This document shows, one piece after another, positions 7,435 through 44,568 of a DNA stretch of 45,971 bases; the first letter of the stretch is position 1; every line of letters starts with the position of its first letter. Source of the DNA: Candidatus Woesearchaeota archaeon. Its GTDB lineage: Archaea; Nanobdellota; Nanobdellia; SCGC-AAA011-G17; CAYFGV01. The position numbers were made by a program, and so were the translations under genes. The notes beneath the pieces are model-generated. The model was not told the origin of the DNA and did not search any database. It was given only the letters and a program-made list of their open reading frames with translations. The stretch spans positions 1 through 45,971 of the forward strand of contig CAYFGV010000003.1 of the NCBI GenBank assembly GCA_964342845.1, given 5' to 3'.

Positions 7435-8136
7435 ATAATCCATTGTTCTTTTCTTTTCTCTTAACGCAGAACTCTTTTTAGTCTGACTCATTAAGCCCTT
7501 TAATTTGCCTTCAAACTCTTCAGCTTTTTTCAACAAAGGCTTATAATCTACTTTCAAATTTAAATAAGCATCCAACATCTCAATAACTTTAGCTGAAGCC
7601 CGAGAATCAGGTAAAGCACTATGTGTTTCAGCAAATAAACAACTTAACTTAACACCTTTAACCTTACTTAACAAAGCAGCTGTAACTCCCATAACAATTC
7701 CCTCACTCATTTCACTAGCACCAGCTTTTTCCCAACTCTTAAGATTTTTATCAGAATAAATAAAGACACCGCCTTCACCACCTTCTTTGCCAACAGCACC
7801 TACACCTTCAACACTAATAATTTCTTTAGCACTTAACTCTTTAGCAACTTTGTTTAAAGCATCAGCAATTTTCCATTCCATTCCAGCTACCTGTGTCAAA
7901 GCATGAAAAATAACTAAATTATATTTTTTACTATAATAAACAGCCAAAGGATCTAAAACTTTGCCATCATGAATAGCTAATATGGGTGCTAAATCGTCAA
8001 ACCATATGGTGCCTATTTTTTCAGCATCCAAATGATCAATCAAAAATTCAGTAACTATTGTTCCAATCAAACCAATACCAGGAAAACCTTCTATAATTGT
8101 AACATTTTTTGGTTTTTTAGTAAATTCTATCTTCAT
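7426..8136 (-). CDS. PAC2-family proteasome assembly chaperone
   Basis: 236 aa. N-terminal IIEGFPGIGLIGTIV motif typical of archaeal PAC2/PbaA-B proteins. ATG start. Confidence 0.75.
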   Translation of the reverse strand: MKIEFTKKPKNVTIIEGFPGIGLIGTIVTEFLIDHLDAEKIGTIWFDDLAPILAIHDGKVLDPLAVYYSKKYNLVIFHALTQVAGMEWKIADALNKVAKELSAKEIISVEGVGAVGKEGGEGGVFIYSDKNLKSWEKAGASEMSEGIVMGVTAALLSKVKGVKLSCLFAETHSALPDSRASAKVIEMLDAYLNLKVDYKPLLKKAEEFEGKLKGLMSQTKKSSALREKKRTMDYLG

Positions 8137-12130: not shown

Positions 12131-12384
12131 ATGAAGATGGAGAAATGAATGTATATTCGGGTGAAGCAAGAGAACAATTAACAGACTCTGACGAAATAAA
12201 TGAACTAGAAGAAGGGTTTATGAAGGGCTATGAAGAAGAAACAAGTGCAGCTGAATGTGCAAACTGTCATAGAATTCTAACAGATGAACTAGTAGAAGAA
12301 GAATTCGATGGAGAAGTTCACAGATTTTGTTCTGAGGATTGCGCAACTAAATTTGAAGAAAAACGCGCCCACGAACATCTTTAA
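12127..12384 (+). CDS. small acidic TRASH/zinc-finger protein
   Basis: 85 aa. CANC-x20-CSEDC fits the TRASH pattern C-x2-C-x19-22-C-x3-C. ATGA overlap with the serS stop. Confidence 0.6.
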   Translation: MNEDGEMNVYSGEAREQLTDSDEINELEEGFMKGYEEETSAAECANCHRILTDELVEEEFDGEVHRFCSEDCATKFEEKRAHEHL

Positions 12385-14057
12385 TTTTTTAATAATTTTT
12401 TATAAGTATAAGTATTTACTATGTCTTTCTTTTCAGCCCAACCTCTCCTTGCTTGCCCAACACCTAATTTCATAAGATCTAATTGGCCAACTGAATGAGC
12501 ATCAGTATTAATACATAATTTAACTTTATTCTCAACACACTTCCTTATATAATAATCATTTAAGTCTAAACGAAGAGGAGAAGAATTAACCTCTAAAATC
12601 TTTCCTGTCTCTTTAGCCATCTGAAGAACTTTATCCATATCTAATTTACTCGCAGGCCTATAATTAATCACCCTTGTAGTAGGATGAGCTAAAATATGTG
12701 TATTTTCATTTTTCATTGCTTTCAAAACCCTTCTAGTAATTTCCTCTTTACTAGCTCTTTGTCCAGTATGAAGAGACATTAGAACAACATCTAATTTTTT
12801 CAAAACATCATCAGAATAATCTAGGTTCCCTTTCTTTAAAATATCAACCTCTGCACCAGCTAAAACTTTTATACCTTTAATATTCTTACTTGTCTTTTTA
12901 ATCTTCTTAACATGCTCTAAAATTTCATCTTCATTCAAACCTCCAGCAACAAATAAAGATTTAGAATGTTCAGTAATAGCTATATATTCATAACCTTTAG
13001 ATTTAGCAGCTAAAATCATGTTCTTAATAGAACCAGTAGCATCTGAAGTAACATTAGTATGCACATGCAGATCTCCTTTAATATCTTTCAGCTTAACTAA
13101 ATTAGGAAGCTTTTTCAAATTTAATTCTCCTGTGTTGTTTCTCATCTCAGGTTGAATATAACCTAAACCTAATTTCTTATAAATTTCCCTTTCATTAACT
13201 CCAGCTATTTTTCTTTTTCCTTTAAACAAACCATACTCATTCAACTTATACTTTTTCTTAATAGCCAGCTGTCTTGTCTTTATACTATGCTCTTTACTTC
13301 CTGTAAAATATTGCAGAGCAGCCCCATAACTCTCTCTCTTTATCAATCTTAAATCAACCTGAACATCATTATCTAATAATATAGTACTTTTAGTTCCTCC
13401 TTTAGCTAACACTTTCTTAACATTTTCTAATTTAGTAAATTTACCAATTAATTTCTTATCAGAAGAAACAGCTAACAAATCTATATCTCCTATGGTTTCT
13501 TCCATTCTTCTTAAAGAACCAGCATAAACAACTTTGTAAGGTTTTAAATTATTTATAATATTTTCAGCAGTTATCAAAGCCTCTCCTAACAACATCCTTT
13601 TCTTCCTTCTTTTAAATAATTGAATAGCCTCTTTAATATTTTGTTCACTTTTCTCCCCAAAACCTTCTAACTTAGCAATCTTATGTTTTTTAACAGCCTT
13701 TTCTAAATCTTTCAAACTTTTAATTTTAAGTTTCTGATGTAAGACTAAAATTCTCTTAGCTCCCAATCCAAGAACACCCATTAAGTTCTCCAACCCATTA
13801 GGAATCTTTTTCTTTAACAACAAATATTCTTTAATCTCTCCTGTTTCCAAATATTCTACAATTTTCTTTTTAATTCCTTCACCAACACCAGGAATATCTT
13901 TTAATTTATCTTTTTCATATAAAACTTTAACATCTTCTTTTAAGTTTTCAATAGCTCTTGCAACTTTCCTATAAGCTTGAGGTTTCCACCTAACTCTCTT
14001 TAACTCTAAAATATCTGCAATATCATAAAAAATTTTAGCTAATTCATAATTTTTCAT
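12381..14057 (-). CDS. polX: DNA polymerase X with C-terminal PHP domain (PolX)
   Basis: 558 aa. HhH-rich N-terminus, Pol-beta nucleotidyltransferase motif GSLRRMEETIGDIDLL, PHP motif DLHVHTNVTSD. Confidence 0.9.
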   Translation of the reverse strand: MKNYELAKIFYDIADILELKRVRWKPQAYRKVARAIENLKEDVKVLYEKDKLKDIPGVGEGIKKKIVEYLETGEIKEYLLLKKKIPNGLENLMGVLGLGAKRILVLHQKLKIKSLKDLEKAVKKHKIAKLEGFGEKSEQNIKEAIQLFKRRKKRMLLGEALITAENIINNLKPYKVVYAGSLRRMEETIGDIDLLAVSSDKKLIGKFTKLENVKKVLAKGGTKSTILLDNDVQVDLRLIKRESYGAALQYFTGSKEHSIKTRQLAIKKKYKLNEYGLFKGKRKIAGVNEREIYKKLGLGYIQPEMRNNTGELNLKKLPNLVKLKDIKGDLHVHTNVTSDATGSIKNMILAAKSKGYEYIAITEHSKSLFVAGGLNEDEILEHVKKIKKTSKNIKGIKVLAGAEVDILKKGNLDYSDDVLKKLDVVLMSLHTGQRASKEEITRRVLKAMKNENTHILAHPTTRVINYRPASKLDMDKVLQMAKETGKILEVNSSPLRLDLNDYYIRKCVENKVKLCINTDAHSVGQLDLMKLGVGQARRGWAEKKDIVNTYTYKKLLKN

Positions 14058-20300: not shown

Positions 20301-20921
20301 CTAAACTATCTTCCTAATCCCTTTATCATAAATCTCAAACTCAAAACTTTTCTCTCCAATATCTAAAACTCTTTTTTGATCATTACTTAATTTAATCTTA
20401 TAATCTGTATTAATTAAATTTCCTCCAACAAATTTAACATTACCTTCAAAATCATGATAAACTTGATTAGTTATCAAAACAGAAATACCATATTTTTTAA
20501 CTTCATTTAACTTATCCATCATCCTTTTCAACCTAGAATTAACTAATTTATAATCCCCTTCTCTAACCTTTTTCCTATAATGTGTTCCAATAGTATCAAC
20601 AATTAAAACTTGTATATCTAAATTCTCTATAATCTTAATAACTTCTTTTACTCTATTTTCTTGTTCATCAAAATCTTTAGCTCTTAAAATAAAAATATTA
20701 TCTAAAACATTTACATCTGTAATTTGTTTTACTCTTTCAACAGAAAATCCATTCTCAGTATCTATAAAAAATACTTTTTTAGTTTTAGCCTGTTCAATAG
20801 CAGCTAATATAGCTAAAGTAGTTTTACCAGTAGCAGCAACCCCATAAATCAAATAACTCTTCCCTTTCTCATAACCATTTCCTAAAAATTCATCCAAATC
20901 CTTAGAACCTGTTTTTATCAT
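20301..20921 (-). CDS. radB: RadB-like recombinase paralogue (RecA/RadA/KaiC superfamily)
   Basis: 206 aa. TGSKDLDEFLGNGYEKGKSYLIYG, Walker A GVAATGKTT, FIDTENGFSVERVKQI, Walker B VLIVDT. Confidence 0.8.
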   Translation of the reverse strand: MIKTGSKDLDEFLGNGYEKGKSYLIYGVAATGKTTLAILAAIEQAKTKKVFFIDTENGFSVERVKQITDVNVLDNIFILRAKDFDEQENRVKEVIKIIENLDIQVLIVDTIGTHYRKKVREGDYKLVNSRLKRMMDKLNEVKKYGISVLITNQVYHDFEGNVKFVGGNLINTDYKIKLSNDQKRVLDIGEKSFEFEIYDKGIRKIV

Positions 20922-29744: not shown

Positions 29745-30338
29745 CTATTTCAAAACTTTCCCTGTCTCCAAAAACCAAAGATATAAATCTAACTCAGCTA
29801 AATTCAAATCTAATTTCTTAGAAATCTTTCTTAAAATATCTTCAATATCTAAATATTTCTTCTTAGTTAATGTTCTAGGATTTTCAATAATAGAATGTTT
29901 AACTAATAAATCAACAATATGAAAATCTATTATAGCCACATCTTTGTAACCAGTATTTCTCAAAAAATGAGAACTTTCCTTATAACCCAAACCTTTAACA
30001 TTTTTAACTAAATCTTCTCTAAACTCAAATCCATTCTTAAACCTTTTAAATTCATAATCTCTAGCTTTAACAATAAAACTACTTCTTAATTTAGGAAACC
30101 TATAACCTAATCTTCTTAATTCTTTCTCTAATTTTTCTTCAGAATAACTAAGAAAACCGTCCTTAATTTCATTTTGAATCTTAATAGCTCTTTCTGCATT
30201 GAAATTAGCAGTTAAAATACAAAAACTTAACTCACTGAAAATATCTTTAACACTTTCAAATTCTTTGATTCTTTTACCAACTAAAACTTTAATTTCAGAA
30301 TTTTTTAAATCTTCAACATTTTTAACTAATTCTTGCAT
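29745..30338 (-). CDS. ogg: N-glycosylase/DNA lyase (archaeal Ogg2-type 8-oxoguanine glycosylase)
   Basis: 197 aa. HhH-GPD region VKGLGYKESSHFLRNTGYKDVAIIDFHI with the catalytic Lys and Asp contexts. Confidence 0.8.
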   Translation of the reverse strand: MQELVKNVEDLKNSEIKVLVGKRIKEFESVKDIFSELSFCILTANFNAERAIKIQNEIKDGFLSYSEEKLEKELRRLGYRFPKLRSSFIVKARDYEFKRFKNGFEFREDLVKNVKGLGYKESSHFLRNTGYKDVAIIDFHIVDLLVKHSIIENPRTLTKKKYLDIEDILRKISKKLDLNLAELDLYLWFLETGKVLK

Positions 30339-31408: not shown

Positions 31409-31735
31409 TTATTTCATCCTTTTAAGAAGATCTTTTAAATCCTTTTTGACTTGTTCTGGAACCTCAGCACAACTTTCTACACCTGTTTCTTGCAAGTATT
31501 CAAGGGAGTTTGTTATTATCGACAAGGAAGCAGCCATTGTTTTTTCTAAATGGGTAATTGAATATAATTTTATTCCTACTTTATACAACTTTGAATGATT
31601 TTCTGGAATTTTGCACCTAAATGGTTCAGTTTGAAGGTAAGGCCTATCCCGAGTATCTATAGCTCTTTTTACATAATTCCTCTGATCCTTATATCCGGTC
31701 TTTATTTCTTTAACCAAATCGCAAATAAATGTCAT
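31409..31735 (-). CDS. hypothetical protein
   Basis: 108 aa, ATG start, no recognisable motif. Divergent from polB. Confidence 0.45.
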   Translation of the reverse strand: MTFICDLVKEIKTGYKDQRNYVKRAIDTRDRPYLQTEPFRCKIPENHSKLYKVGIKLYSITHLEKTMAASLSIITNSLEYLQETGVESCAEVPEQVKKDLKDLLKRMK

Positions 31736-31789
31736 AAATTTAGCAAATCCTTAAACTTTAAAAACCTTCCCAACTTACCAAAAACCCAA

Positions 31790-34081
31790 ATGAAAGCTTT
31801 CATAACCTACCAAACCTACAGAATAATCAATAACAAAGCATATATCTTCTTATTTGGAAGACTAGAAAATCAAGAATCTTTTGTAACAATCAACTATTTC
31901 CAACCATACTTTTTCATAAAAACAAAAGACCTAAACAAAGCAAAACAATTAGAGAAACTAAACTATGAAAATACACCTCTAAAAGACATAAAAAACAACC
32001 AGGTAACTAAAATAATCCTAAACATTCCAAAAGAAGTAAAACAACTAAGAAACACTCTAGAAGAAAATAACATACAATGCTATGAAGCAGATATAAGATT
32101 CACAAACAGATTCTTAATAGATAAAGAAATTCAAGGCTCTTTAAACATAGAAGGAGAATATGACCAAGAAGACGAAGTAGATAGAGTCTACAAAGAACCA
32201 ACCTTAACACCAACCCAACACAACCCAAACTTAAAAACTCTCTCAATAGACATAGAAACAGATTCAAAAGCAAAAAAGATATTTTCAATCTCACTTTATA
32301 CAAACGATTTCAAAAAAGTCTTAATAATAACAAAAAAATCTCTAAAAAACGCAATCTCTTGCCAAGACGAAGAAGATCTCTTAATTAAATTCTCAGAATA
32401 TATAAAACAAATAGACCCAGACATAATAACTGGATGGAACCTAATAGATTTTGACTTAAAAGTTATCTTCAACAGATTAAAACACTACAACCTACCAACA
32501 AACCTAGGAAGAGATAACACACTTTGCAAATTAAAATTAGAAAAAAACTTTTTCAAAACTTCAAAAGCAGATTTTCCAGGAAGACAAATCCTAGACGCAA
32601 TGAATATTCTAAGATCTTCTTACATAAAATTACAAGATTACAGACTAGACACAGCAGCAAACACAATCTTAGGAGAAAGAAAACTAATCCAAGAAAACAA
32701 AGGAGAAACAATAGAACGCTACTTCAAAGAACAACCACAAAAATTAGTAGATTACAACCTAAAAGACGCAGAATTAGTAATAAAAATTTTAGAAAAAACA
32801 GACACATTAAACCTAACAATTAAAAAAAGTCTCTTAACAGGAATGCCTTTAGATAGAACTTCAGCAACTATAGCATCCTTAGACTCCTTATACTTAAAAC
32901 AAGCAAGAAAAAGAAATATAGTATTACCTTCTTCAACATTTACAGAAAGAACAGAAAGATTAAAAGGAGCTTATGTAAAAGAACCAACACCAGGAATATA
33001 CAACCATGTAATCATCTTAGATTTCAAATCACTATACCCAACAATAATAAAAACCTTCAACATAGACCCAATAACCTACAGAGAGAAAAAAGAAAAGAAC
33101 GTTATAGAAGCACCAAACAAAGCATTTTTCACAACAGAAATAGAAGGAGTAGTACCTTCCCTATTTGACAATATCTGGAAAGAAAGAGAAATCTACAAAA
33201 AGAAAAAAGACAAAACAGCAATTTTCGCTCTTAAAACTTTAATGGCATCTTTCTGGGGAGCAATGGCATCACCAGCTTACAGAATGTATAATCAAAACCT
33301 AGGAAACGCTATAACAAGCTTTGCTAGATATTTAATACAAAAAACAGAAAAAATAATACAAGAAAAAGGACACGAAGTTATTTACGGTGACACTGACTCA
33401 ATATTTTTAGTTTCAAAAGCAAATTCACTAGAACAAGCAAAAGAATTAGGGAAAAAACTAGAAAAAGAAATAAATGATTTCTATGATAAATACATAAAAG
33501 AAAAATACAACAGAGAATCTAAGCTACACCTAGAATACGAAAAAACATATATCAAATTCTTAATGCCTAAAGTTAGAGGACAAGAAAAAGGAGCAAAAAA
33601 AAGATATGCTGGTTTACTTAACATAGATGGAAAAGAAAAAATAGATTTTGTAGGATTAGAAAGCGTAAGAGGAGATTGGACCCAACTAGCAAAAGAGTTT
33701 CAATTAGAATTATTAGACAGAGTCTTTCATGAAAAAGAAGTTGTTAATTTCACTAAAAAACTTGTAGATGATATTAAAAAAGGAAAACATGATAAAAAAC
33801 TAATCTACAGAAAATCTATAAGAAAAGAGTTAGATGCTTATACAAAAATTACGCCTCAGCACATTAAGGCGGCCAGAAAACTAAAAAAATTAGAATCAAA
33901 CCTAATAGAATATTACCTAACAACAGATGGTCCAGAACCAATACAAAACCTAAAACATCAAATAGATTACGAACAATATATCAAAAAACAAATAAAACCA
34001 ATTGCAGACTCAATCTTAGTTTTTTTCAATAAAACCTTTGATGAATTAGTAACACAACAAACAAGTCTTTTTAACTATTAA
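31790..34081 (+). CDS. polB: family B DNA polymerase
   Basis: 763 aa from the ATG at 31790 (MKAFITYQ). Exo I LSIDIET, motif A LDFKSLYPTII, KKRYAG and motif C YGDTDS. The ORF-track 5' extension (31595) overlaps the divergent gene and reads as junk. Confidence 0.92.
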   Translation: MKAFITYQTYRIINNKAYIFLFGRLENQESFVTINYFQPYFFIKTKDLNKAKQLEKLNYENTPLKDIKNNQVTKIILNIPKEVKQLRNTLEENNIQCYEADIRFTNRFLIDKEIQGSLNIEGEYDQEDEVDRVYKEPTLTPTQHNPNLKTLSIDIETDSKAKKIFSISLYTNDFKKVLIITKKSLKNAISCQDEEDLLIKFSEYIKQIDPDIITGWNLIDFDLKVIFNRLKHYNLPTNLGRDNTLCKLKLEKNFFKTSKADFPGRQILDAMNILRSSYIKLQDYRLDTAANTILGERKLIQENKGETIERYFKEQPQKLVDYNLKDAELVIKILEKTDTLNLTIKKSLLTGMPLDRTSATIASLDSLYLKQARKRNIVLPSSTFTERTERLKGAYVKEPTPGIYNHVIILDFKSLYPTIIKTFNIDPITYREKKEKNVIEAPNKAFFTTEIEGVVPSLFDNIWKEREIYKKKKDKTAIFALKTLMASFWGAMASPAYRMYNQNLGNAITSFARYLIQKTEKIIQEKGHEVIYGDTDSIFLVSKANSLEQAKELGKKLEKEINDFYDKYIKEKYNRESKLHLEYEKTYIKFLMPKVRGQEKGAKKRYAGLLNIDGKEKIDFVGLESVRGDWTQLAKEFQLELLDRVFHEKEVVNFTKKLVDDIKKGKHDKKLIYRKSIRKELDAYTKITPQHIKAARKLKKLESNLIEYYLTTDGPEPIQNLKHQIDYEQYIKKQIKPIADSILVFFNKTFDELVTQQTSLFNY

Positions 34082-34380: not shown

Positions 34381-34635
34381 ATGTATGGTGTTGAATTCTC
34401 AAAAATAGCTGAAAAACAAATTTATAAATTAGATAAAACAACACAAACTAGAATAATTTCAACAATTGAAAGAGCTAGAATAAGACCTCACACCCATATA
34501 AAAAAGTTAGTTGGAAGTCCTTATTTCGCTCTTAGATCTGGAGAGTATAGGATAATTATCGATTTAAAAGAAGAAATACTTCTAATTTTCGTGATTAAAT
34601 TAGGACATAGAAAAAATATCTATAAAAACCTCTAA
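34381..34635 (+). CDS. relE: RelE/ParE-family toxin (mRNA interferase)
   Basis: 84 aa. YRIIIDLKEEILLIFVIKLGHRKNIY is a typical RelE C-terminal core. Confidence 0.8.
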   Translation: MYGVEFSKIAEKQIYKLDKTTQTRIISTIERARIRPHTHIKKLVGSPYFALRSGEYRIIIDLKEEILLIFVIKLGHRKNIYKNL

Positions 34636-35270
34636 ACAAACTTCCTCAACCCAACCTCTGATTTAACCAAACCTTCTGGCTTAAAAATAAAAGCATCTGT
34701 AGCATCAAAATAACCACACCTAAACTTCTCCAAACTAATCCCTGTTCTCTTACTTAACATCAAAGCATAAAATAAAACCTGTGTAGCAGCATATTTCTCT
34801 TTCATAGCACCTGGCTTATAATCCCAAATCCAAATCTTTCCATCTTCAATCCTTAAAATATCAATATGTCCTGTCAAAGGTTCTAAACAACCAAACAAAG
34901 AAATATACTCATCCAACTCAGCACTCTCTAGCCAAATAGGAACCTCCATTGCAATAGTCTTATCATCATTCTCCAACATAAATATCTGAACCTTGGAGTG
35001 ATTGTCCTTATACCTCTCTCCATTAGCTTCTAAACCATGTTCAGCCAACAAACTAACCTCATGACCTTTAACATGGTGAACGTTATTCTCAGTTAAAAAC
35101 TTCAAAGAAGAACTCCTAGGACCAGAAGAAAAGTAATCATCAGGACATTCATCAAACATTCTGTAAATAAACCTATTCAACTCACTAAAAGAACACAAAC
35201 CTATTTTTTTCTCATTAACCCTATAAAAATAAAAACCACCTTTATGATCCAACACAACTTTTTTTATCAT
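34632..35270 (-). CDS. PD-(D/E)xK-fold nuclease (RecB/Cas4-like core, no Cys cluster)
   Basis: 212 aa. GHIDILRIEDGKIWIWDYKPG...QVLFYALM fits the D...(D/E)xK...QxxxY motif order of RecB-family nucleases. Confidence 0.55.
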   Translation of the reverse strand: MIKKVVLDHKGGFYFYRVNEKKIGLCSFSELNRFIYRMFDECPDDYFSSGPRSSSLKFLTENNVHHVKGHEVSLLAEHGLEANGERYKDNHSKVQIFMLENDDKTIAMEVPIWLESAELDEYISLFGCLEPLTGHIDILRIEDGKIWIWDYKPGAMKEKYAATQVLFYALMLSKRTGISLEKFRCGYFDATDAFIFKPEGLVKSEVGLRKFV

Positions 35271-35344: not shown

Positions 35345-36334
35345 ATGGGAGTTAAACTAACATCTATTGTAACAAAAAAACAATTAGATTTCAAAGACCT
35401 AGCAAATAAAAAGATAGTTATAGATTTTTCAAACTCAGCATATCAATTTCTTTCTTCGATAAGACAACAAGATGGAACTCCTTTAACAGACTCAAAAGGA
35501 AATATAACCTCTGTTTACCTAGGTATTTGGTCGAGATTCACTAAATTAATGCAAAATAACATAAAATTAGCAGTAGTTTTTGATGGAAAGCCTCCAAAAT
35601 TAAAAGAAAAAGAAAAAGAAAGAAGATCTAGTCTAAAACAACAAGCAATGGAAAAATTAGAAAAAGCAGAAACAGATGAAGAAAAACTTAAATTTGCAAA
35701 AAGAACAGGAAGATTAACCCAAGAAATCATAGATGGATCTAAAGAATTAATCAAAGCCATGGGAATACCAATTATACAAGCACCTTCAGAAGCAGACGCA
35801 CAAATGGCTTTTATGGCAGAACAAAAAGATGTTTGGGCAACCGCATCCTCAGACATAGATTGTTTAATATACGGAACACCAAGATTAATAACTAACCTAA
35901 CCCTTTCACAAAGAAGAAGACTTCCCTCTGGAAATTATATAAAAACCTACCCAGAAATGATTATCTTAAAAGATCTATTAAATGAATTTCAAATAACAAG
36001 AGACCAATTGTTAATTATGGCTATTTTAATAGGAACAGATTACAACACAGGAGTAAAAGGTATAGGCCCAAAAACAGCCTTAAAATTAGTAAAACAATAC
36101 AAAGACTACGATGAACTATTCAAACAAGTAAAACCAGACTTTAACTGGAAAGAAATCTACGCAGTTTTTAAATCAATGCCAATTATGAAAAACTATCAAC
36201 TAAAATGGGGACCTCCTAATAAAGAAAAAATAAAACAACTCCTAGTAGACAAACACGAATTCTCAGAAGAAAGAGTAGATAAAACTTTAAAAGCTTTAAA
36301 TAAAGAACAAAAAGGTTTAACAAAATGGTTTTAA
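35345..36334 (+). CDS. fen: flap endonuclease 1
   Basis: 329 aa. MGVKL N-terminus, VFDGKPP, APSEADAQ, IGTDYN and a C-terminal PIP-like LTKWF. Confidence 0.93.
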   Translation: MGVKLTSIVTKKQLDFKDLANKKIVIDFSNSAYQFLSSIRQQDGTPLTDSKGNITSVYLGIWSRFTKLMQNNIKLAVVFDGKPPKLKEKEKERRSSLKQQAMEKLEKAETDEEKLKFAKRTGRLTQEIIDGSKELIKAMGIPIIQAPSEADAQMAFMAEQKDVWATASSDIDCLIYGTPRLITNLTLSQRRRLPSGNYIKTYPEMIILKDLLNEFQITRDQLLIMAILIGTDYNTGVKGIGPKTALKLVKQYKDYDELFKQVKPDFNWKEIYAVFKSMPIMKNYQLKWGPPNKEKIKQLLVDKHEFSEERVDKTLKALNKEQKGLTKWF

Positions 36335-36655
36335 TTTAGTCTTTAAACTTTTTAATTTTGGAAGATAATTTTTAAAACTTCTCTTAAATTTAGGATTTCC
36401 AACCATCTCTGAAATCTCACCCACTATCTTTTCTTTTATTCCTATTTTTCTTCTATCAGCCCCACTATTTTTCATATTTTGTAAAATGACTTTTAAATCT
36501 CTGGTATTGGCCGCCAAATCTGCAACAATCCTCTCCACTAATTCTCTAGGTAAACTATTTAGATAAGCAGATTCAATACTATCTAACCCTCCTTTTATAT
36601 TTCTAAAAAAATCTTTTTCTATTTTTTCATATCTTTTTAATATATCTTCTTTCAT
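36317..36655 (-). CDS. hypothetical helical protein
   Basis: 112 aa from the ATG at 36655 (MKEDILKRY), 4 nt after the upstream gene stop. The ORF-track start at 36691 would overlap that gene by 32 nt. Confidence 0.45.
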   Translation of the reverse strand: MKEDILKRYEKIEKDFFRNIKGGLDSIESAYLNSLPRELVERIVADLAANTRDLKVILQNMKNSGADRRKIGIKEKIVGEISEMVGNPKFKRSFKNYLPKLKSLKTKLKPFC

Positions 36656-36659
36656 TCTC

Positions 36660-37211
36660 CTAATGTCCCAGCAAATCAGCAGCACTAGCACCTATAATCG
36701 CAGGCACAGAAATAACTGCTACTTGCTTAAATACCTCCTCAAAATGAGCTTCAGTTCCAACTATTCCAAATAAAAATAATACAAACAAAATAACTCCAAT
36801 AGCAGTAAAATAAATAACAGTTAATCTTAAAGGAATAAACTTAAACACCTTCACAGTTTTAACCTTTCTAAATCCAGTAACATACAACAATCCACCGCCA
36901 ATAAAATAAGAAACAATTAAGATTAAAATAGCTCTTCCCATATCTATACTCTCAGATAAATGAACTCCTTCTAAAAAAGCAAAATGAGCTACAATACCAA
37001 TAAAAGCACCAATTACAGCCTTAGTTATATCTCTATAAGTTACTTTTCTTAAAGTATGTGGTTTAGTCTGTTTTAAAATCTTTTTTTCTAATTCCTCCAA
37101 CTCTTCTAATTCTTTTAACTGTTTTCTCTCTAAACTCTCTATTTTCTTCTCTTCTCTTAGAATATCTTTTCTAGAAACCCTCTTTTTTTTAATAACTTTT
37201 TTCTTAGGCAT
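36660..37211 (-). CDS. integral membrane protein with N-terminal charged coiled-coil
   Basis: 183 aa. K/E-rich N-terminus (LEELEELEKK), then about 4 hydrophobic helices. Confidence 0.6.
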   Translation of the reverse strand: MPKKKVIKKKRVSRKDILREEKKIESLERKQLKELEELEELEKKILKQTKPHTLRKVTYRDITKAVIGAFIGIVAHFAFLEGVHLSESIDMGRAILILIVSYFIGGGLLYVTGFRKVKTVKVFKFIPLRLTVIYFTAIGVILFVLFLFGIVGTEAHFEEVFKQVAVISVPAIIGASAADLLGH

Positions 37212-37346
37212 ACTTCTATTTTAGAATTAATTCTTTTTAAAGATTTCTATCCAAAAGTAATAACTACTTAAAAATGGTTAACATAGAAACTTTTATAAAT
37301 GCCAATAAATTGTTATTTTAAATAATAAAATAAAGATTATAACAAA

Positions 37347-37706
37347 ATGGCAAAAGATAATTTACCAAAGTTGCCTCCTTTGGAGGAAGTTTTAGGTGCT
37401 GTAACAGGAGAGTCTGGAATAAGTAAGGATATTGGGAATTATCTTGTTGAGGCTATTAGAAATTTATCAGATGCTGAAAGAAAAGAGTTAGCTAAAGCAT
37501 TGAATCTTGCTGAAAATAAATCATATGTTAAAGAACCGGTTGTTATAGACAAACACTGTGCAAAAGGAGATTGTGATATACAGTTTAGTTCTATTGAGGG
37601 GAATAGAACTGTTATTTGTAAATATCTTAGATACGGTGATTGTCGTTATGGCGTTTCCGAGGACTTTCTTTATGTGGTTTGTAATTTTAGTAGTACTTGG
37701 AGATAA
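37347..37706 (+). CDS. Cys-rich small protein, paralogue A (orphan)
   Basis: 119 aa. MAKDNLPKLPPLEEVLGAVTGESG head, NLAENKSYV box and five Cys in the C-terminal 50 aa. Tandem duplicate of the next gene. Confidence 0.6.
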   Translation: MAKDNLPKLPPLEEVLGAVTGESGISKDIGNYLVEAIRNLSDAERKELAKALNLAENKSYVKEPVVIDKHCAKGDCDIQFSSIEGNRTVICKYLRYGDCRYGVSEDFLYVVCNFSSTWR

Positions 37707-37710
37707 TAAA

Positions 37711-38103
37711 ATGGCAAAAGATAATTTACCAAAGTTGCCTCCTTTGGAGGATGTTTTAGGTGCTGTAACAGGAAAGTCTGGAACAAGTAAGAAAAATGCT
37801 TCAGGCGACCTTCTTAAAATTATTCAGAATTTATCGCCTGCTGATAAAAAGAAATTAGCTAAGATTTTGAATCTTGCTGAAAATAAATCATATGTTGAGG
37901 TGCCGGCTCTTATAGAGAAGTATTGTGCAAAAGGGGGCTGTGATATACAACTGGTTTTTAGTGAGGGAGAGAAGGGCATTGTCTGTAGACATTATATAGA
38001 GGATAATGTAGGATATGGTAACTTTATGCTTTGCGGGATAGATCGGCATGAGGAGAATGGAGGATATTGTGCATTTGTTAAGTCTTGGCTTGGATATATT
38101 TGA
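37711..38103 (+). CDS. Cys-rich small protein, paralogue B (orphan)
   Basis: 130 aa from the ATG at 37711 (MAKDNLPKLPPLEDVLGAVTGKSG). The ORF-track start at 37558 is an out-of-context extension across gene A. GGAG lies 8 nt upstream of the ATG. Confidence 0.6.
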   Translation: MAKDNLPKLPPLEDVLGAVTGKSGTSKKNASGDLLKIIQNLSPADKKKLAKILNLAENKSYVEVPALIEKYCAKGGCDIQLVFSEGEKGIVCRHYIEDNVGYGNFMLCGIDRHEENGGYCAFVKSWLGYI

Positions 38104-38105
38104 AA

Positions 38106-39179
38106 ATGGCAAATATAAATAATCAATTAATGGAAATTGGTAAACCTGAAATTAGGAGTGTAGCTTTGCGGAATACAACTCCGTTAGATGCTTTATATGA
38201 TTTAAATCCAGAGATTGCTACTTTAGCTTATGCACATAGAGAGAAATTATTGTCTCCACAGATTCTTCCCTATGTAGCGAGATTTAGAGAGTTACAATCA
38301 GATGAGAGGATTGCGACTATTGGTGCGTTAGTTGAAAAATTAAAGATTGAGACTGGTGCAGAGGTTGCTAAGTACGGTGTTGACGGTCAGGTGGAAATGA
38401 CAAGACTTTCTGAAGATGGTTTAACTACTAGAACAGGTATTGTTCAGGATGGTTTGACTAAGCGGACAAAGATGGAATCTGAGGTTAAGTTTGATTACCA
38501 GAAAAAGATGCACGAGCTTGGAATGCACCATCTTGATAGTCAGGTTGAAATGACAAGATTTTCTGAGGACGGTTTGACTAGACGAGAGGAGATTAGGATG
38601 AATGGGTTGAGGGATCTTCAAAAATTAAAATATGATGCAAATGTTAGGATGTTGCAGAGCCACATAGACGGTCAAAAGTATTTATCTGATAACCAACTTA
38701 AGGCTACGCATGTTGAAGCAGAAGCATATAAACAAGCTATGCAGACTAGAGAGTCCATTAGGGCAGAGACTGAAAGGAGAGTTTCTAAAGATAGGCTTGA
38801 AGAAAAAATAAAGACTGCTGCAATAGAATTTGTAGGAAAGATAAGAGAAGCTGAGATAATGAGAGAGTCAAATCGTACTAAGGTTATGTCAGAAGTGACG
38901 CAGGTTTATATTGAAAAACAAGCAGAACTTTATTTAGCGACAATTGAATCAGAATTGAGGACAGAGGCGATGCAAGGAGAGATTGAAAAAGAGAGAATAA
39001 AAGCAGGTACAGAACGTTATTCTAGTTTTCAAGAAACAATTAGGAATGTTATTGATAATGCAGCTGAAATATTAAAACAAATCCCTAACCTATCCAAAGA
39101 ATCAAATATTAGATTTATAGTAAAAACAGGAGAGCATCCTATAGAGATAAGATATACAAAACACGAAGATAATGATTAA
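38106..39179 (+). CDS. repeat-containing helical protein (orphan)
   Basis: 357 aa from the ATG at 38106 (MANINNQ), 2 nt after the gene B stop. Internal 51-aa-period repeat QVEMTR(L/F)SEDGLT(T/R)R. E/R/K-rich predicted helical C-terminal half. Confidence 0.6.
   Translation: MANINNQLMEIGKPEIRSVALRNTTPLDALYDLNPEIATLAYAHREKLLSPQILPYVARFRELQSDERIATIGALVEKLKIETGAEVAKYGVDGQVEMTRLSEDGLTTRTGIVQDGLTKRTKMESEVKFDYQKKMHELGMHHLDSQVEMTRFSEDGLTRREEIRMNGLRDLQKLKYDANVRMLQSHIDGQKYLSDNQLKATHVEAEAYKQAMQTRESIRAETERRVSKDRLEEKIKTAAIEFVGKIREAEIMRESNRTKVMSEVTQVYIEKQAELYLATIESELRTEAMQGEIEKERIKAGTERYSSFQETIRNVIDNAAEILKQIPNLSKESNIRFIVKTGEHPIEIRYTKHEDND
38386..38432 (+). repeat. intragenic repeat unit 1
   Basis: GTCAGGTGGAAATGACAAGACTTTCTGAAGATGGTTTAACTACTAGA. 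A similar unit recurs at 38539-38585, a 153-nt period. Confidence 0.7.
38539..38585 (+). repeat. intragenic repeat unit 2
   Basis: GTCAGGTTGAAATGACAAGATTTTCTGAGGACGGTTTGACTAGACGA. A further DGLTKR-coding fragment lies at about 38449-38466. Confidence 0.7.
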
Positions 39180-39196
39180 AAAATATTCAAAATAAT

Positions 39197-40222
39197 TTAT
39201 TTATTATTTTTAGACATATAGTTAATTTTATTATATTCTTTCTTAACTTCCGCTAAAATAGAATCTATTAATTTATTTAAATCACCAATTTCTTTTAATT
39301 TTAGTTCTAAACCACCTACTATTTGTAGTGCTTTATCCCTTTCTTCCTTTATGTCTATTGAATCTAGTTTATCTCTAATTTCATCTACAGTTTTGAAACC
39401 CTCAAAATATGTCTGTAAGCAATTGATAATGTCTTCAGATAATTCTTCAATTTTTTTTATTATTTTTTCATTTTTAGCAGAAACACCACCATTTTGATTT
39501 TTTATTTTTTCAAGATTATTATTAATTGTTATTTCTACTTTTCTAAGATTTCTTAACCTAATTAATTCATCTTCTATTTTCTTATCTAAGTTATTTAAAT
39601 GATTCTTAAATGATTTTATCTGTTCCCCTTTGATATCTTTCTTCAATTCATTAGCAAGTTTTAACTCATCTTTATTCATTTTTTTTGAAATTTTAACCAT
39701 TTCATGCCCTTTCTTAGCTTCTTCATAACCTTTCTTAGCCCCTTCAAGCCCTGCTTTAGATTCATACCTCTCTTTTGAAGCCTTACTAACAGCTTTAGAA
39801 GCCTTCCTAATACTTGTTCCTAAAGCCGAATAAATACCAAGACCTAATAACACAAGCAATAATAAAATAGATATCCAAGCAACATCATACAACAAACCTT
39901 GCAACCACATAGCAAAAGGAGTTGCCCATGCAATTAAGAAAGACAAAACAATAGAAAAAACAAGTGCAGCATTCTTATGTTCAGCATCTTTAAATATCTT
40001 AATCTGCCTAGATAAAGGTTGTATTACAGCATATAATAAAGCAGTAACTAATAAAATATACCCTAAACTAGCTGAATAATAACTATAACCAAAAGAACCA
40101 TACCATAAACCATCCCAAACACTATAAAAGAAATAAGAAAAAGGATTTTCATAATAAGCAGCATAAACTTGTTTAACTAACAACAAAAATCCAAACAAAA
40201 ACATTAACAGCCTCTTTTTCAT
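39197..40222 (-). CDS. signal-peptide / 3-TM / long coiled-coil membrane protein (orphan)
   Basis: 341 aa. MKKRLLMFLFGFLLLVKQVYA signal-like N-terminus, an aromatic-rich (Y/W/F) ecto segment, three hydrophobic helices, then about 190 aa of K/E-rich heptad-like sequence. Confidence 0.65.
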   Translation of the reverse strand: MKKRLLMFLFGFLLLVKQVYAAYYENPFSYFFYSVWDGLWYGSFGYSYYSASLGYILLVTALLYAVIQPLSRQIKIFKDAEHKNAALVFSIVLSFLIAWATPFAMWLQGLLYDVAWISILLLLVLLGLGIYSALGTSIRKASKAVSKASKERYESKAGLEGAKKGYEEAKKGHEMVKISKKMNKDELKLANELKKDIKGEQIKSFKNHLNNLDKKIEDELIRLRNLRKVEITINNNLEKIKNQNGGVSAKNEKIIKKIEELSEDIINCLQTYFEGFKTVDEIRDKLDSIDIKEERDKALQIVGGLELKLKEIGDLNKLIDSILAEVKKEYNKINYMSKNNK

Positions 40223-40259
40223 AATTTAAACAAATAAAAAAAGAAATATATAAAGGTTT

Positions 40260-41195
40260 CTATGATGGCCTTCTTTTTTCTATCACCTTAGACACTTTTT
40301 CGATAATAGCTCTTTGTCGACTAATTTCATCGAGAATATTTGATAGTTCTTCTGTATCTTTTACTTTTCTTAACTTATCATGAGCAGTAACTATTGCTCC
40401 AAGAGCACCATCAGCTTCTTTTTCAAATTCATCCCAATCCTTTCCTCTATAGCCTGTTAAACCCACTCTTTTTAATTGCTGTATGTTATCTCTCATTTTT
40501 TCCAATACTTTCTCTTGGGATTCAAGATTTTCACCAAGTTTTGCAATATATGAATTAATTTTTGCTACATCCCTCTTTTTTATGGCACTTCTCAAACCTC
40601 TTATTGTTGATTTCTCTTGGCTAGCAAGAACTCTTTCAGTATGTGCCTCTCTTATAGCCTGGGATTGTTTGCCTGCACTTTCTCTAGCTTTGGCAACATT
40701 TAATCCGACATCACCAAATTTCTTGCCTAATCCAGCAACCAACATGTATATTATAAGTCCACCACCACCAAATATTGCTATATATCCTAAAATACCTCCA
40801 AAAATTCCAACCCATTCAAATAATGGAACTAATATACCACCTAATCCTGCAAAAACAACTAAACTAAAAGATACAATTAGACCTAAAATCGTAAAAGACC
40901 ATTTTCGTTCCTCTGCAAAACTCCTAAGTACATCTACTCTAGAACTTACAAGTAACAAAACAAGAAAAAGAATAACAGTCATAACTAAAGCCATTCCCCA
41001 AGTTAAACTGTCACCAGACATTCCCCCTAATTGTACTGTTTTGTTTAAATCAAAAAGACCTTTTAACCATCCTGAAGTAACATCCCAAACCTCTCCTGGT
41101 GTTTTTGGCCCAGCCTCTACAACCCCAGAAAACAAACCAATAAAAAACAAACTAAAAACAATCAAACAAAATATCTTTTTATTATCCATTATCAT
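40260..41195 (-). CDS. signal-peptide / 3-TM / coiled-coil membrane protein (orphan)
   Basis: 311 aa. Signal-like IFCLIVFSLFFIGLFSGVVEA, three Gly-rich TM helices, then an about 150-aa helical charged tail. Same architecture as the neighbouring gene. Confidence 0.65.
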   Translation of the reverse strand: MIMDNKKIFCLIVFSLFFIGLFSGVVEAGPKTPGEVWDVTSGWLKGLFDLNKTVQLGGMSGDSLTWGMALVMTVILFLVLLLVSSRVDVLRSFAEERKWSFTILGLIVSFSLVVFAGLGGILVPLFEWVGIFGGILGYIAIFGGGGLIIYMLVAGLGKKFGDVGLNVAKARESAGKQSQAIREAHTERVLASQEKSTIRGLRSAIKKRDVAKINSYIAKLGENLESQEKVLEKMRDNIQQLKRVGLTGYRGKDWDEFEKEADGALGAIVTAHDKLRKVKDTEELSNILDEISRQRAIIEKVSKVIEKRRPS

Positions 41196-41230
41196 TCACC
41201 CCATATCAAATTTTTAAAACAATAGATACC

Positions 41231-41259: not shown

Positions 41260-42018
41260 ATGCTAAATTTCCTAAAAAAACCAAAACTACCAAGCTCTTT
41301 TGACATAGTTGGCTCTATCTTAATTATAAACGAAAAAATACAAAAACAAAAAAAAGTAGCAAAACTACTCTTAAAAAAACATAAAAACATAAAAACTATT
41401 CTAGTAAAAACAAAACAATATCAAGGAAAATACAGAACACCTACCTTAAAACATCTAAAAGGAATAAAAACAAAAATAACCTACCATAGAGAATCCAAAT
41501 GCATCTTCCATCTAAATGTAGAAAAATGCTACTTCTCTGTAAGATCTGGCTCAGAAAGACTAAGAATAGCTAAACAAGTAAAACCAAATGAAAACATACT
41601 AACTTTATTTTCTGGAGTAGCACCATTCCCATTAATAATAGCAAAAAACGCAAAACCAAAACACATAGATGCAATAGAAATCAACCCAATAGCCCACAAA
41701 TACGCAAAAGAAAACTTAAAAATAAACAAAACAACTAATATCACTCTATACAACCAAGATGTTAAAAAAATCCTACCTAACTTAAAAACCTACAACAGAA
41801 TAATAATGCCATTACCAAAAGAAGCACACTTATACTTAAAAGAAGCTAAAAAACACCTAAAACCAAAAGGAACCATACATCTATACTTATTCGAAAGAGA
41901 AGAAAACTTCAAAAACTTAATAAACAAATACAAAAAACAATTCAAAACAGTAAAATTAACAAAAGCAGGAAAATACGCCCCATCAACCTACAGAATCTGC
42001 TTAGATTTAAAGGCCTAA
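41260..42018 (+). CDS. Met-10+/Trm5-family tRNA methyltransferase
   Basis: 252 aa. SFDIVGSILIINE (the yDivGdiaii motif of Trm5/Taw2) and a SAM-binding region ILTLFSGVAPFPLIIAK...AIEINP. Confidence 0.7.
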   Translation: MLNFLKKPKLPSSFDIVGSILIINEKIQKQKKVAKLLLKKHKNIKTILVKTKQYQGKYRTPTLKHLKGIKTKITYHRESKCIFHLNVEKCYFSVRSGSERLRIAKQVKPNENILTLFSGVAPFPLIIAKNAKPKHIDAIEINPIAHKYAKENLKINKTTNITLYNQDVKKILPNLKTYNRIIMPLPKEAHLYLKEAKKHLKPKGTIHLYLFEREENFKNLINKYKKQFKTVKLTKAGKYAPSTYRICLDLKA

Positions 42019-44568
42019 ATCCAACTTTCTAACTTTTACAGCAGAAGGAGTTTCACCACCATGCCAACTCAGCTTAGGCCTAACACGCATAGGATAAATC
42101 CTTTCAGAATTATCATCTAAAATAATAGCAGAACCTTTCAATCTAGGCAATTCACCCAAATATCTCTGAATATCATTAACCAAATAACTCTGCATCATAC
42201 TATTCAAAGCATCTATATCTTTCTTAGCAGTAACTCTGTGGCTAACTACAATATCTGATTGCGTCATAACATCAGTATGAATCTCTCCTGGTTGTTGTGT
42301 AGCTAACACCAAAGAAATTCCAGGTTGCCGACCTTCACGAAGTAATTGAATCAAAGCATCTGAAGAAGCCACTTTTCCTTCTTTAGGTAAAAACTCATGA
42401 GCCTCATCAATCATCAACCAAACAAAAGGAACCTGTTCTTTATCTTCTTCTAAATCAGAAAAATAACTATATCCAGAACCAATAGTCTGAATCTCTTCCA
42501 TCTTACGACTTAATAATCTATCTTTTAATAATTTTCTTCCTAACAACCCAATAACTAAAGCCTTAATATTCTGATTATCATAAACACTAACATCTAAAAT
42601 ACTAACTCTTCCTCTTTTAATAATTTTACTAACAGGTGTACCCTCTCTGCTAAATAAACCCCAGCCTTTAGCAGCTGAAAACATATTAAATAAACCATCT
42701 TTAACATTCTTTTCAGCTCTTTTATCTTTTTCAATAAACTCCAAAATATCATCTATACTGAAATCATCTTCATACTTATCTCTAACTTCTTCTAAAATTC
42801 TAGAAATCATTATTCCTAATGGATCAACTAAACTAACTTCAAAAATATTACTCCAATCACCTGCATTTAATTCACTAACTTTAATAGAAAAAGAAAAATC
42901 AGCATCAACACCCATTTCTTTATATTTTTCAAAATAACCTTCTGGAACATAAACATCTACCTCTTCCAACTTCTCAGGTTTCAAACCCCATTCCCTAAGC
43001 AAATCTTCATCCCTTTCATTAGGATATTTCATAGTCCAAAAAATTCCCATTGTATCTAGCATAACAACAGATAAATTTTTAGAAACTTCATCAGGCAGTC
43101 TAGCCATTTCTTCTGCCATAACAGAAAGAGAATAACTATTATGAACAATAATATCATTAGCAACAAAATTATGAAAATTAGGAACAGAAATATCATAAAC
43201 TTTAAATTTACCTTCCATAATCTTCATCTCAATAATTTCATCCCAAAAAATATCAGATTGAGCTAACAACTTTAATTGTTCATTCTTATCAATTTCCGCA
43301 ATCTGTAACAAGGTTTTCCTCGAAGGACAATACCTAATCCTTTCTCTCATAGCCTTTGCATAAGCATAACCGAATCCCCTTCCAATTTCAGCCCAATTAG
43401 ATGGTCTGTAAATATCCCAAATTCCTTTAGGAATTGTATCAACATTAGGATTTTTAACCACTGTAATAACTTCATTCAAACATTGTTCTTGTTTTTTAGC
43501 TTTTTCTCCAAAAAATCCAATTTCCTCGATAAATTTAACAGTATTTTCAGAATTTACAAGTAGTTCAAAAGTTTCAAATTCTTTTTTATTACACTTTACT
43601 GTTTTTGTCCTTAATTTAGAAATAATTCCGAACCTCAAAAGAATATTCTGTACTTGTTTTATTAGCTTACTAGAAGAAGAGGAATATGAAATCTCCCAAC
43701 TATTCTTAGTTTTATATAAACTCCCATCACAGGAGAACAAACGACTTAAAAATAAACTTAAACTTTCTTTATTTAATTTAAAAATTTCTTCAGGAATCCA
43801 CTTTTCTTTAGCATAATAACCATAGCAACCAAGAGATTTCAACCAACTTTTTACAGGATTTTCCCTAAAACTATATCTATTATCTTTGTTAGCAACTCTA
43901 TAACATCCAGGTTTACTATGCAAGTCTACTTGTAAGTCTTTGTCAAATCTAAAGATACTCTCTTTAAAATCATTAAGGATAATCTCATCAGAATTGCTAA
44001 ACAACACCCAGCTTTGCCTGGTGTGCCCCTCAGCAATCAAATAAGCCAATATTTTGATTTTATAATCCTCCATAACTTCACTACCAAAAACATCAATTTT
44101 TCTTGGAGTAGCTATTCTACTTCCTAAATTTAATTCTTCAGCTGGGCGCCAACCTTTTACAGTCAATAAAGGATGTTCTGGAGTTAATTTAATCTCTTTT
44201 CCACTTCTTAGTTTTAAATATAATATTTCCTCTACTTCTCTTTCAAAAAAATCATTCTTTTCTAATTGCTTAATTTTCAGATTATTATCTAAGCCAACAG
44301 CACAACTGTCATTATCCTTTAAATTCTGGATAGGAACCTGTCTTCCGTCATCTAATTGGATTAATGTATCTCCTAAAAGACACTTACCTTGGCCTCTCTT
44401 ACCGCTAACTAAAACAACATGAGCCTTAGCCACATCCATATAAACCTCGTTACTCAACGAAGTAGAAGTCCCCATCTTAACATACTGCTTTCCTAGAAAA
44501 ACTAAGCCTTTATCACCAAATTTCTTTTTATCTCCTTCATCTCTTCCAATCACAGTCTTATAACCCAT
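42007..44568 (-). CDS. HerA/DUF87-type (FtsK-HerA superfamily) ATPase interrupted by an intein
   Basis: 853 aa. Joining the exteins gives 438 aa with Walker A GKRGQGK|S, Walker B VWLMIDEAHEF and LATQQPGEIHTDVMTQSDIVVSHRV, typical of HerA-like ATPases. Confidence 0.85.
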   Translation of the reverse strand: MGYKTVIGRDEGDKKKFGDKGLVFLGKQYVKMGTSTSLSNEVYMDVAKAHVVLVSGKRGQGKCLLGDTLIQLDDGRQVPIQNLKDNDSCAVGLDNNLKIKQLEKNDFFEREVEEILYLKLRSGKEIKLTPEHPLLTVKGWRPAEELNLGSRIATPRKIDVFGSEVMEDYKIKILAYLIAEGHTRQSWVLFSNSDEIILNDFKESIFRFDKDLQVDLHSKPGCYRVANKDNRYSFRENPVKSWLKSLGCYGYYAKEKWIPEEIFKLNKESLSLFLSRLFSCDGSLYKTKNSWEISYSSSSSKLIKQVQNILLRFGIISKLRTKTVKCNKKEFETFELLVNSENTVKFIEEIGFFGEKAKKQEQCLNEVITVVKNPNVDTIPKGIWDIYRPSNWAEIGRGFGYAYAKAMRERIRYCPSRKTLLQIAEIDKNEQLKLLAQSDIFWDEIIEMKIMEGKFKVYDISVPNFHNFVANDIIVHNSYSLSVMAEEMARLPDEVSKNLSVVMLDTMGIFWTMKYPNERDEDLLREWGLKPEKLEEVDVYVPEGYFEKYKEMGVDADFSFSIKVSELNAGDWSNIFEVSLVDPLGIMISRILEEVRDKYEDDFSIDDILEFIEKDKRAEKNVKDGLFNMFSAAKGWGLFSREGTPVSKIIKRGRVSILDVSVYDNQNIKALVIGLLGRKLLKDRLLSRKMEEIQTIGSGYSYFSDLEEDKEQVPFVWLMIDEAHEFLPKEGKVASSDALIQLLREGRQPGISLVLATQQPGEIHTDVMTQSDIVVSHRVTAKKDIDALNSMMQSYLVNDIQRYLGELPRLKGSAIILDDNSERIYPMRVRPKLSWHGGETPSAVKVRKLDLGL
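43138..44382 (-). mobile_element. intein with LAGLIDADG homing-endonuclease domain (415 aa)
   Basis: Starts at Cys63 (CLLGDTL; codon 44380-44382) and ends VHN477 (Asn codon 43138-43140), followed by Ser+1. Block B is LTPEHPLL. LAGLIDADG motifs are KILAYLIAEGH and LFLSRLFSCDGSL. Confidence 0.85.

Follow-up and report, generated by a model that had tools for sequence, protein, structure and literature searches.

In encapsulin and bacterial microcompartment (BMC) cargo systems, a short terminal peptide is carried by differing proteins that are encoded beside a single partner, and this peptide is portable to unrelated domains. Multi-precursor clusters of ribosomally synthesized and post-translationally modified peptides (RiPPs), of the prochlorosin type or modified by radical SAM/SPASM enzymes, consist of paralogues in tandem, which are nearly the same at the N-terminus and differ greatly in a Cys-rich C-terminus. 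The archaeal CPxCG-type zinc-finger proteins are about 100 amino acids (aa) long and have four conserved Cys, and the bacterial EzrA-like proteins are coiled-coil anchors that tether cytoskeletal or division proteins to the membrane. Here we compare these systems with a cluster of five genes, A to E, from a Candidatus Woesearchaeota archaeon (assembly GCA_964342845.1, contig CAYFGV010000003.1, positions 1 to 45,971 of the forward strand; this whole stretch of 45,971 nucleotides (nt) is referred to as the window). Genes A and B encode small Cys-rich proteins that begin with the same 12-residue peptide, which we call the tag, gene C encodes a larger helical protein, and genes D and E encode membrane proteins. 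We propose, with a probability of roughly 40%, that A, B and C form a conserved, vertically inherited module of Nanoarchaeota-type DPANN archaea in which the tag docks client proteins onto a scaffold, C.

Genes A (37347-37706, 119 aa), B (37711-38103, 130 aa) and C (38106-39179, 357 aa) follow each other on the + strand with stop-to-start gaps of 4 nt between A and B and 2 nt between B and C. A and B were assigned from their open reading frames (ORFs) and sequences, B as a paralogue of A, and C from its ORF, the alignment of its family and an AlphaFold2 (AF2) model. The 11-mer AAAATGGCAAA has exactly three copies in the window, at the start codons of A, B and C, where 0.21 would be expected by chance, and none of 100 shuffles gave three. 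An earlier note on this DNA had described the trio as tightly coupled, with a common start, and as two Cys-rich paralogues followed by a repeat/helical protein; the first two points are upheld by these counts and the third by BLASTP identity, the repeats in C and its AF2 model. The same arrangement is found well beyond the window. In all 18 distinct loci with readable flanks (the window, L001, L003, L004, L007, L010, L011, L012, L013/L147, L014, L015, L018, L020, L022, L023, L024, L025 and L146) a homologue of C directly adjoins between one and five genes that bear the tag, and these tagged genes often overlap C or sit 2-4 nt away from it. On this record the A/B-type genes and C are one conserved and previously undescribed gene module, and a functional link within the + strand trio is supported. 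Of the synteny of all five genes, which the earlier note had proposed to test, only a part is conserved: A/B-type genes occur with C in 18 of 18 loci and neighbours of the D/E type in just 5.

In A the tag covers residues 5-16, NLPKLPPLEEVL (nt 37359-37394), and in B it is encoded by nt 37723-37758; a synthetic peptide for it would read MAKDNLPKLPPLEEVLGAVTG. The alignment of 26 proteins from 14 loci gives the motif x-L-P-x-[LIM]-P-[PS]-L-x-[ED]-[VLI]-[LME]. The Pro and Leu of its core do not vary in any of the 26 proteins, every one of them carries it within residues 4-18, and a Gly often follows about 8-10 residues past it. Within one genome the tags of paralogues are near-identical whereas the bodies behind them have diverged. 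This can be seen in A and B themselves, with 58% identity across 103 aa (E 1e-38). Their first 96 nt (37339-37434 in A and 37703-37798 in B), of which 8 nt precede the ATG, show 93% identity, compared to about 75% beyond them, and the synonymous divergence (dS) rises from 0.055 in codons 1-28 to 0.74-1.02 further along. This contrast suggests that the near-identical 5' ends come from gene conversion or from a constraint at the nucleotide level on the end that encodes the tag. With a conserved front end and variable bodies, the small proteins do look like the diversifying pair of paralogues that they had been taken for. A search with a degenerate DNA pattern of the tag over the GTDB genomes was swamped by chance matches in GC-rich bacteria and was unusable; one Nanoarchaeales match among the pattern matches listed (L057) lay at a locus edge and was not readable.

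The tag is modular, attached as it is to differing domains in different loci. The commonest body behind it is a linker with a four-Cys domain. L020 has a helical tagged protein of 163 aa, L025 has two tagged proteins of 174 and 215 aa that are weakly TPR-like (below the Pfam cut-off), and in L004 the tag precedes an unrelated 156-aa domain. The tagged protein of L011 (12-824, + strand), directly upstream of the C homologue, is 270 aa long; a tag variant, IPKLPPLPSFPSVDEV, stands near its N-terminus on the predicted cytoplasmic side and is followed by a single transmembrane (TM) segment and a C-terminal domain. Finally, one predicted protein of 511 aa (P0064) has a C-family part in residues 39-365 and a tag-bearing part in residues 377-503, with the tag DDLPPLYEIIG at the junction, and it may be a natural fusion of C and a tagged protein of the Rosetta-stone kind.

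A single-copy partner, a portable peptide, translational coupling and the concerted evolution of the tags together point to a docking tag that is recognised by C. In the mechanism that we propose, A and B would be client proteins, each made of the 12-residue N-terminal peptide, a variable linker and a small four-Cys domain. The peptide L-P-x-L-P-[PS]-L-x-[ED]-[VL] would be the docking tag, and C would bind it most likely through its conserved N-terminal helical domain. C would then be a soluble scaffold that gathers a varying range of tagged proteins in the cytoplasm, plausibly near the membrane, where D, and less certainly E, would act as membrane anchors whose charged cytoplasmic tails meet the scaffold. 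Hydropathy gives no TM segment in A, B or C, no signal peptide is seen in C, and there is no convincing TM segment in the C homologues, of which P0049 gave one borderline hydropathy match. The lack of TM segments and signal peptide in C, together with the cytoplasmic tag on the L011 membrane protein, suggests a cytoplasmic and possibly membrane-proximal assembly. Proximity to the membrane is also suggested by the recurrent tailed membrane proteins described below and by L018 (883-5323 and 7163-8014), in which the module ends a row of small genes with N-termini like those of type IV pilins, charged at first and then hydrophobic, and the gene of a Peptidase_A24 prepilin peptidase comes right after it.

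The putative scaffold can be divided into an N-terminal helical domain (residues ~10-85), which is its best conserved part, repeats (~88-157), a helical bundle (152-325) and a C-terminal beta-hairpin (333-352). The AF2 model (predicted local distance difference test score (pLDDT) 69; predicted template modelling score (pTM) 0.60) is mostly helical, as the description of C as a repeat/helical protein had it, and shows a small N-terminal helical domain, low-confidence repeats (85-157), four long helices and the C-terminal beta-hairpin. At the DNA level the internal repeats include a 67-nt direct repeat that is 78% identical. At the protein level the unit is 11 residues long, G-L-T-x-R-T-x-I, with a copy number that varies across the family; C has 3-5 copies in the form G-x-T-x-R-x-x-[MI]. 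Two relatives, P0076 (734 aa) and P0068 (470 aa), have long arrays of at least nine copies of this 11-residue repeat, and some relatives, P0068 for one, have 9-10. The repeats lie between the two strongly conserved elements of the family: N-P-E-I-A-x-x-A-Y-A ... R-F-R-E-L-Q-S-x-E-K-I in the N-terminal segment, and the loop G-Q-K-Y-L-S-D-N. Among 5.8 billion proteins, a word-seeded search picked out 20 relatives of C, and those that are named belong to Nanoarchaeota or Nanoarchaeia. When 1.84 billion cluster representatives were scanned in full with a HMMER profile, 69 proteins matched at E <= 0.001, and 48 of these matched at E <= 1e-30. Distant matches of extra length, P0072 and P0078, were rejected as repeat-driven false positives (e.g. 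IQ motifs). By these searches the C family is rare and limited to metagenome-assembled genomes of the Nanoarchaeota/Woesearchaeota type within DPANN.

None of the five genes could be placed in a known family, which agrees with what had been claimed from the sequence. A to E gave nothing above noise in Pfam, PHROGs, NCBIfam, PADLOC or the PDB sequences; the PADLOC matches were weak coiled-coil noise (E >= 0.004), and the PDB was searched both with single sequences and with profiles. When 20 homologues of C and 12 of A/B were compared singly with Pfam, no family recurred, and PspA_IM30, Snf7 and Band_7 in particular gave no match at E <= 1 in the 20 C homologues. The earlier note had also proposed a structure search. 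For the C model, Foldseek returned only generic long-helix matches from the PDB and BFVD at E >= 0.15, so that neither database gave a match at E < 0.1; among the 144 PDB matches none reached E <= 0.001, and the PspA/ESCRT-III and SPFH folds were not in the top 50. Literature searches led only to broad surveys of the protein families of DPANN archaea, and the A/B and C families are not described in what was found. With no curated description and no structural relative found, both are new at the family level.

This bears on the likeness to encapsulin and BMC cargo systems. As in those systems, the terminal motif is found on all of the tagged neighbours of the single partner, C. However, C is helical and has no signal of an HK97 or BMC domain (Pfam; Foldseek best E 0.15-0.2), there is no sign of a closed shell, and the tag of the module is N-terminal and proline-rich. 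We use the likeness as an analogy only.

The main rival to docking is a leader-peptide system of the RiPP or bacteriocin-like kind, in which A and B would be precursors, C a leader-binding or processing partner, and the Cys-rich part would be modified or exported. The tagged proteins do have the conserved leader and variable core of RiPP precursors, and the tandem paralogues with their near-identical N-terminus and hypervariable Cys-rich C-terminus look much like those of multi-precursor clusters. The Gly that often follows the tag could be counted on the same side. Additionally, in L001 a gene that resembles radical SAM/SPASM peptide maturases (6653-7759, + strand) starts 2 nt past the C homologue; in NCBIfam it comes closest to DynA, anSME and TIGR04083 and reaches none of their cut-offs. 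Such a maturase is however confined to one organism (L001/L002), and by Pfam and NCBIfam the cluster in the window has no RiPP modifying enzyme of the radical SAM/SPASM, LanM, YcaO or similar type. No ORF of more than 100 aa in the window contains CxxxCxxC. In none of the locus tables does a leader peptidase or a C39-ABC exporter adjoin the module, and the sole ABC transporter of the window (17-1804) is 36 kb away and lacks a peptidase domain. The window and most loci are thus without the maturase, protease and exporter of RiPP clusters. The tagged proteins are also a poor match for precursors, as some bodies are 156-270 aa long with none or only one or two Cys, and one tagged protein is anchored in the membrane with its tag on the predicted cytoplasmic side. 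The supposed cores are 50-100 aa long with predicted beta structure, and C gives no signal of an enzyme family. Taking both sides together, we consider a leader-peptide system improbable.

The Cys-rich parts of A and B can be compared with the CPxCG-type proteins. A consists of the tag, a helical linker and a C-terminal, beta-rich domain that is rich in Cys, and B has the same tag with a diverged Cys-rich domain; each has 5 Cys. Four Cys are conserved across the A/B family, spaced singly about 5-25 residues apart, and the first and last of them often precede Pro, which together with the length of about 100 aa is what these proteins share with the CPxCG group. The beta structure of the Cys-rich part was predicted in the AF2 model of A, which was built from a 13-sequence alignment; at a pLDDT of 45.6 its secondary structure alone was used. 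The four-Cys domain is probably a metal-binding mini-domain. Unlike the CPxCG-type proteins, A and B have no paired CxxC knuckles and no match to a Pfam zinc ribbon, and only A has a match, below threshold, to zf-CCCH. To our knowledge, proteins of the CPxCG group have neither an N-terminal tag nor an obligatory partner gene.

Genes D (39197-40222, - strand, 341 aa) and E (40260-41195, - strand, 311 aa) converge on the trio, with 17 nt between the stop codons of C and D. By hydropathy and positive-inside analyses, both proteins start with a hydrophobic segment like a signal peptide, continue with three more TM segments and end in a charged tail, which the loop charges place in the cytoplasm. 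This is the architecture that had been reported for them, apart from the tail lengths, which are 213 aa in D and 158 aa in E rather than 150-190 aa. The reading of the tails as coiled coils is not established, since a crude test of hydrophobic periodicity gave no significant global heptad signal. D and E resemble EzrA-like anchors in joining N-terminal membrane segments to a long, charged helical region in the cytoplasm, and they differ from them in having no sequence or profile similarity and no significant heptad periodicity. They also have no detectable similarity to each other (BLASTP E = 1.0) and have the architecture alone in common.

Whether D and E are part of the module is uncertain for both. 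It is quite conceivable, and we would give it even odds, that the five genes are not one system, but that A, B and C are a module beside which the fast-evolving D and E merely fill a variable slot between fen1 and trm5. The convergent orientation would fit this, as would the poor conservation of the two proteins. E has no homologue but itself among 5.8 billion proteins, and D has one weak relative, encoded directly before the L020 module on its upstream side (E 3e-7, with 22% of 263 aa identical). Neighbours of this type are missing at 13 of the 18 loci, and the membrane proteins of L007 and L012 are not detectably related to D or E; hhalign found no homology between the alignment of the L007/L012 proteins and D, E, the DUF2391 protein next to A, or a profile of D with its L020 relative. 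The opposite case is made by the recurrence of the architecture. In 5 of the 18 loci, which come from diverged lineages with C identities of 32-51%, proteins that combine a signal peptide, several TM segments and a charged cytoplasmic tail are encoded no more than 2 kb from C. There are two in the window, two in L007, three in L012 by the strict screen and four by eye, one in L020, where it is cut by the contig end, and four in L146. The L007 and L012 proteins are related by BLASTP, and those of L146 are related to those of L012 by visual comparison. The architecture is otherwise rare in the sequence screened, as the rest of the window and 13 loci (about 180 kb) contained just one further case, an ABC transporter. 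The link of the module to charged-tail membrane proteins is thus weakly supported, by a shared architecture in part of the family, and the odds are somewhat against D and E belonging to the same system as A, B and C. The single assembly of trio and membrane genes that had been suggested earlier keeps the five loci with such proteins in its favour, and has against it the 13 loci without them and the lack of any homologue of E. As an observation apart from this, a protein of about 88 aa with two TM segments, ending in ...VPIYEG..(V/I)(V/G)YR(K/R), is encoded beside the module in L007 (1387-1656), L012 (7234-7491, - strand) and L025 (3338-3604); no counterpart was found in the window.

Returning to docking of the tag onto C, several points weigh against it. 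The contact between tag and C is drawn from genomic association, and P0064 is a single predicted protein that may be a frameshift artefact. Conserved polar residues of C, for example in the G-Q-K-Y-L-S-D-N loop, could mark an active site and not a passive scaffold. With the low pLDDT of the A model, the fold of the Cys domain and its metal binding stay predictions, and its Cys are singly spaced instead of forming CxxC knuckles. The part of the proposal that concerns the membrane is weakened by the absence of D/E-type proteins from 13 of the 18 loci, by membrane proteins that show no detectable homology between lineages, and by E being a singleton.

The trio had also been described as compositionally foreign, with a GC content of 43-47%. 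Over whole genes the GC content is 0.342 for A, 0.374 for B and 0.361 for C, whereas the other 41 genes of the window average 0.303 (sd 0.028); the rise is modest (z-scores of 1.4, 2.6 and 2.1). At third codon positions it is 0.20, 0.28 and 0.27 against 0.20 for the other genes. B and C are nonetheless the most GC-rich genes of the window and have its strongest positive GC skew, and in L004 the homologous locus is found beside ORF6N and DNA-methylase genes. These features could be expected if the trio were recently acquired foreign DNA, a remnant of a virus or mobile element or an effector/immunity cassette. The GC excess is small, however, and the module has a similar GC content across hosts. 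In seven of eight related loci it is about 36-40%, and in the eighth, L001, it is 31%. Where the flanks are AT-rich the module exceeds them by as much as 5.5 points, and where they have about 39% GC it matches them or lies lower. Since the GC content of the module is similar whatever that of its flanks, it fits the amino-acid composition of the proteins better than a recent transfer.

The searches and the gene neighbourhoods likewise leave little room for an origin of this kind. Searches of IMG/VR contigs, INPHARED phages, PLSDB plasmids and BFVD structures turned up no relatives, PADLOC and PHROGs gave no match, and no toxin, immunity or defence family was matched in Pfam or PADLOC. The module is kept beside the same housekeeping genes in different lineages. 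A PD-(D/E)XK nuclease and fen1 flank it in the window and in L020, the block from fen1 through the module to trm5 and HerA is common to the window and L012, in which C is just 35% identical, and S6e and aIF5B lie beside it in L003 and L015. These conserved neighbourhoods, together with the absence of viral, phage and plasmid relatives, argue for a module that is vertically inherited within Nanoarchaeota and is neither viral nor mobile. The ideas of a virus-derived or an effector/immunity module are accordingly not supported, and we regard a recent foreign origin as very improbable.

The rest of the interval and of the window can be described more briefly. The cluster does lie between fen1 (35345-36334) and trm5, as had been stated, with two extra - strand genes on the fen1 side. 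One of these encodes a DUF2391 membrane protein (36660-37211, - strand, 183 aa; Pfam E 9.7e-13) with a charged N-terminal region and four TM segments by topology analysis. It is divergent from A across a 135-nt AT-rich spacer. The other is an ORF of 124 aa (36317-36691, - strand) between fen1 and the DUF2391 gene. Its listed start is a GTG that overlaps the upstream DUF2391 gene; with an alternative in-frame ATG at about 36655 (MKEDILK...) it would start 5 nt past the DUF2391 stop, which suggests that the two form an operon divergent from A. Scans for promoters and terminators, in which the only consensus was that of bacterial sigma-70, did no better than shuffles.

On the other side of the cluster, a HerA/DUF87-type ATPase gene (42007-44568, - strand) is split by an intein that contains a LAGLIDADG homing-endonuclease domain (Intein_splicing E 1e-24; LAGLIDADG_3 E 3e-19). 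In the window, L012 and L024 the module has a HerA/DUF87 ATPase gene no more than a few genes away. The window is rich in genes of DNA replication and repair: besides fen1, these include PolX/PHP (12381-14057), a RadB/Rad51-like ATPase (20301-20921), an Ogg glycosylase (29745-30338), a family B polymerase (31595-34081) and a PD-(D/E)XK Cas4-like nuclease (34632-35270). Several related module loci also adjoin repair or replication genes (RFC, gyrase, Hjc, RadA). Such neighbours may be a simple effect of small genomes.

DPANN archaea have tiny genomes in which a large share of the genes has no known function. Families and structures give the A/B/C module no functional assignment, and the docking role is our proposal. 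A wider version of this proposal would see here a new archaeal system of peptide-tag sorting or docking, in which C is a hub that recruits an evolving repertoire of tagged proteins (metal-binding mini-domains, TPR-like proteins, membrane proteins) to a membrane-proximal assembly of DPANN cells, with fast-evolving anchors such as D and E and perhaps the neighbouring ATPase of the HerA/FtsK type; we think this version rather unlikely as a whole. The module has been kept in neighbourhoods of core genes across diverged Nanoarchaeota and probably has a basic role in the cell. Its logic of one hub gene with one to five tagged clients offers a concrete and cheap entry for experiments, and we regard it as a clean, testable lead for the cell biology of DPANN archaea rather than as a resolved surprise. 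If the tag is a targeting signal, it would amount to a new archaeal sorting code, and further clients could be predicted from sequence alone.

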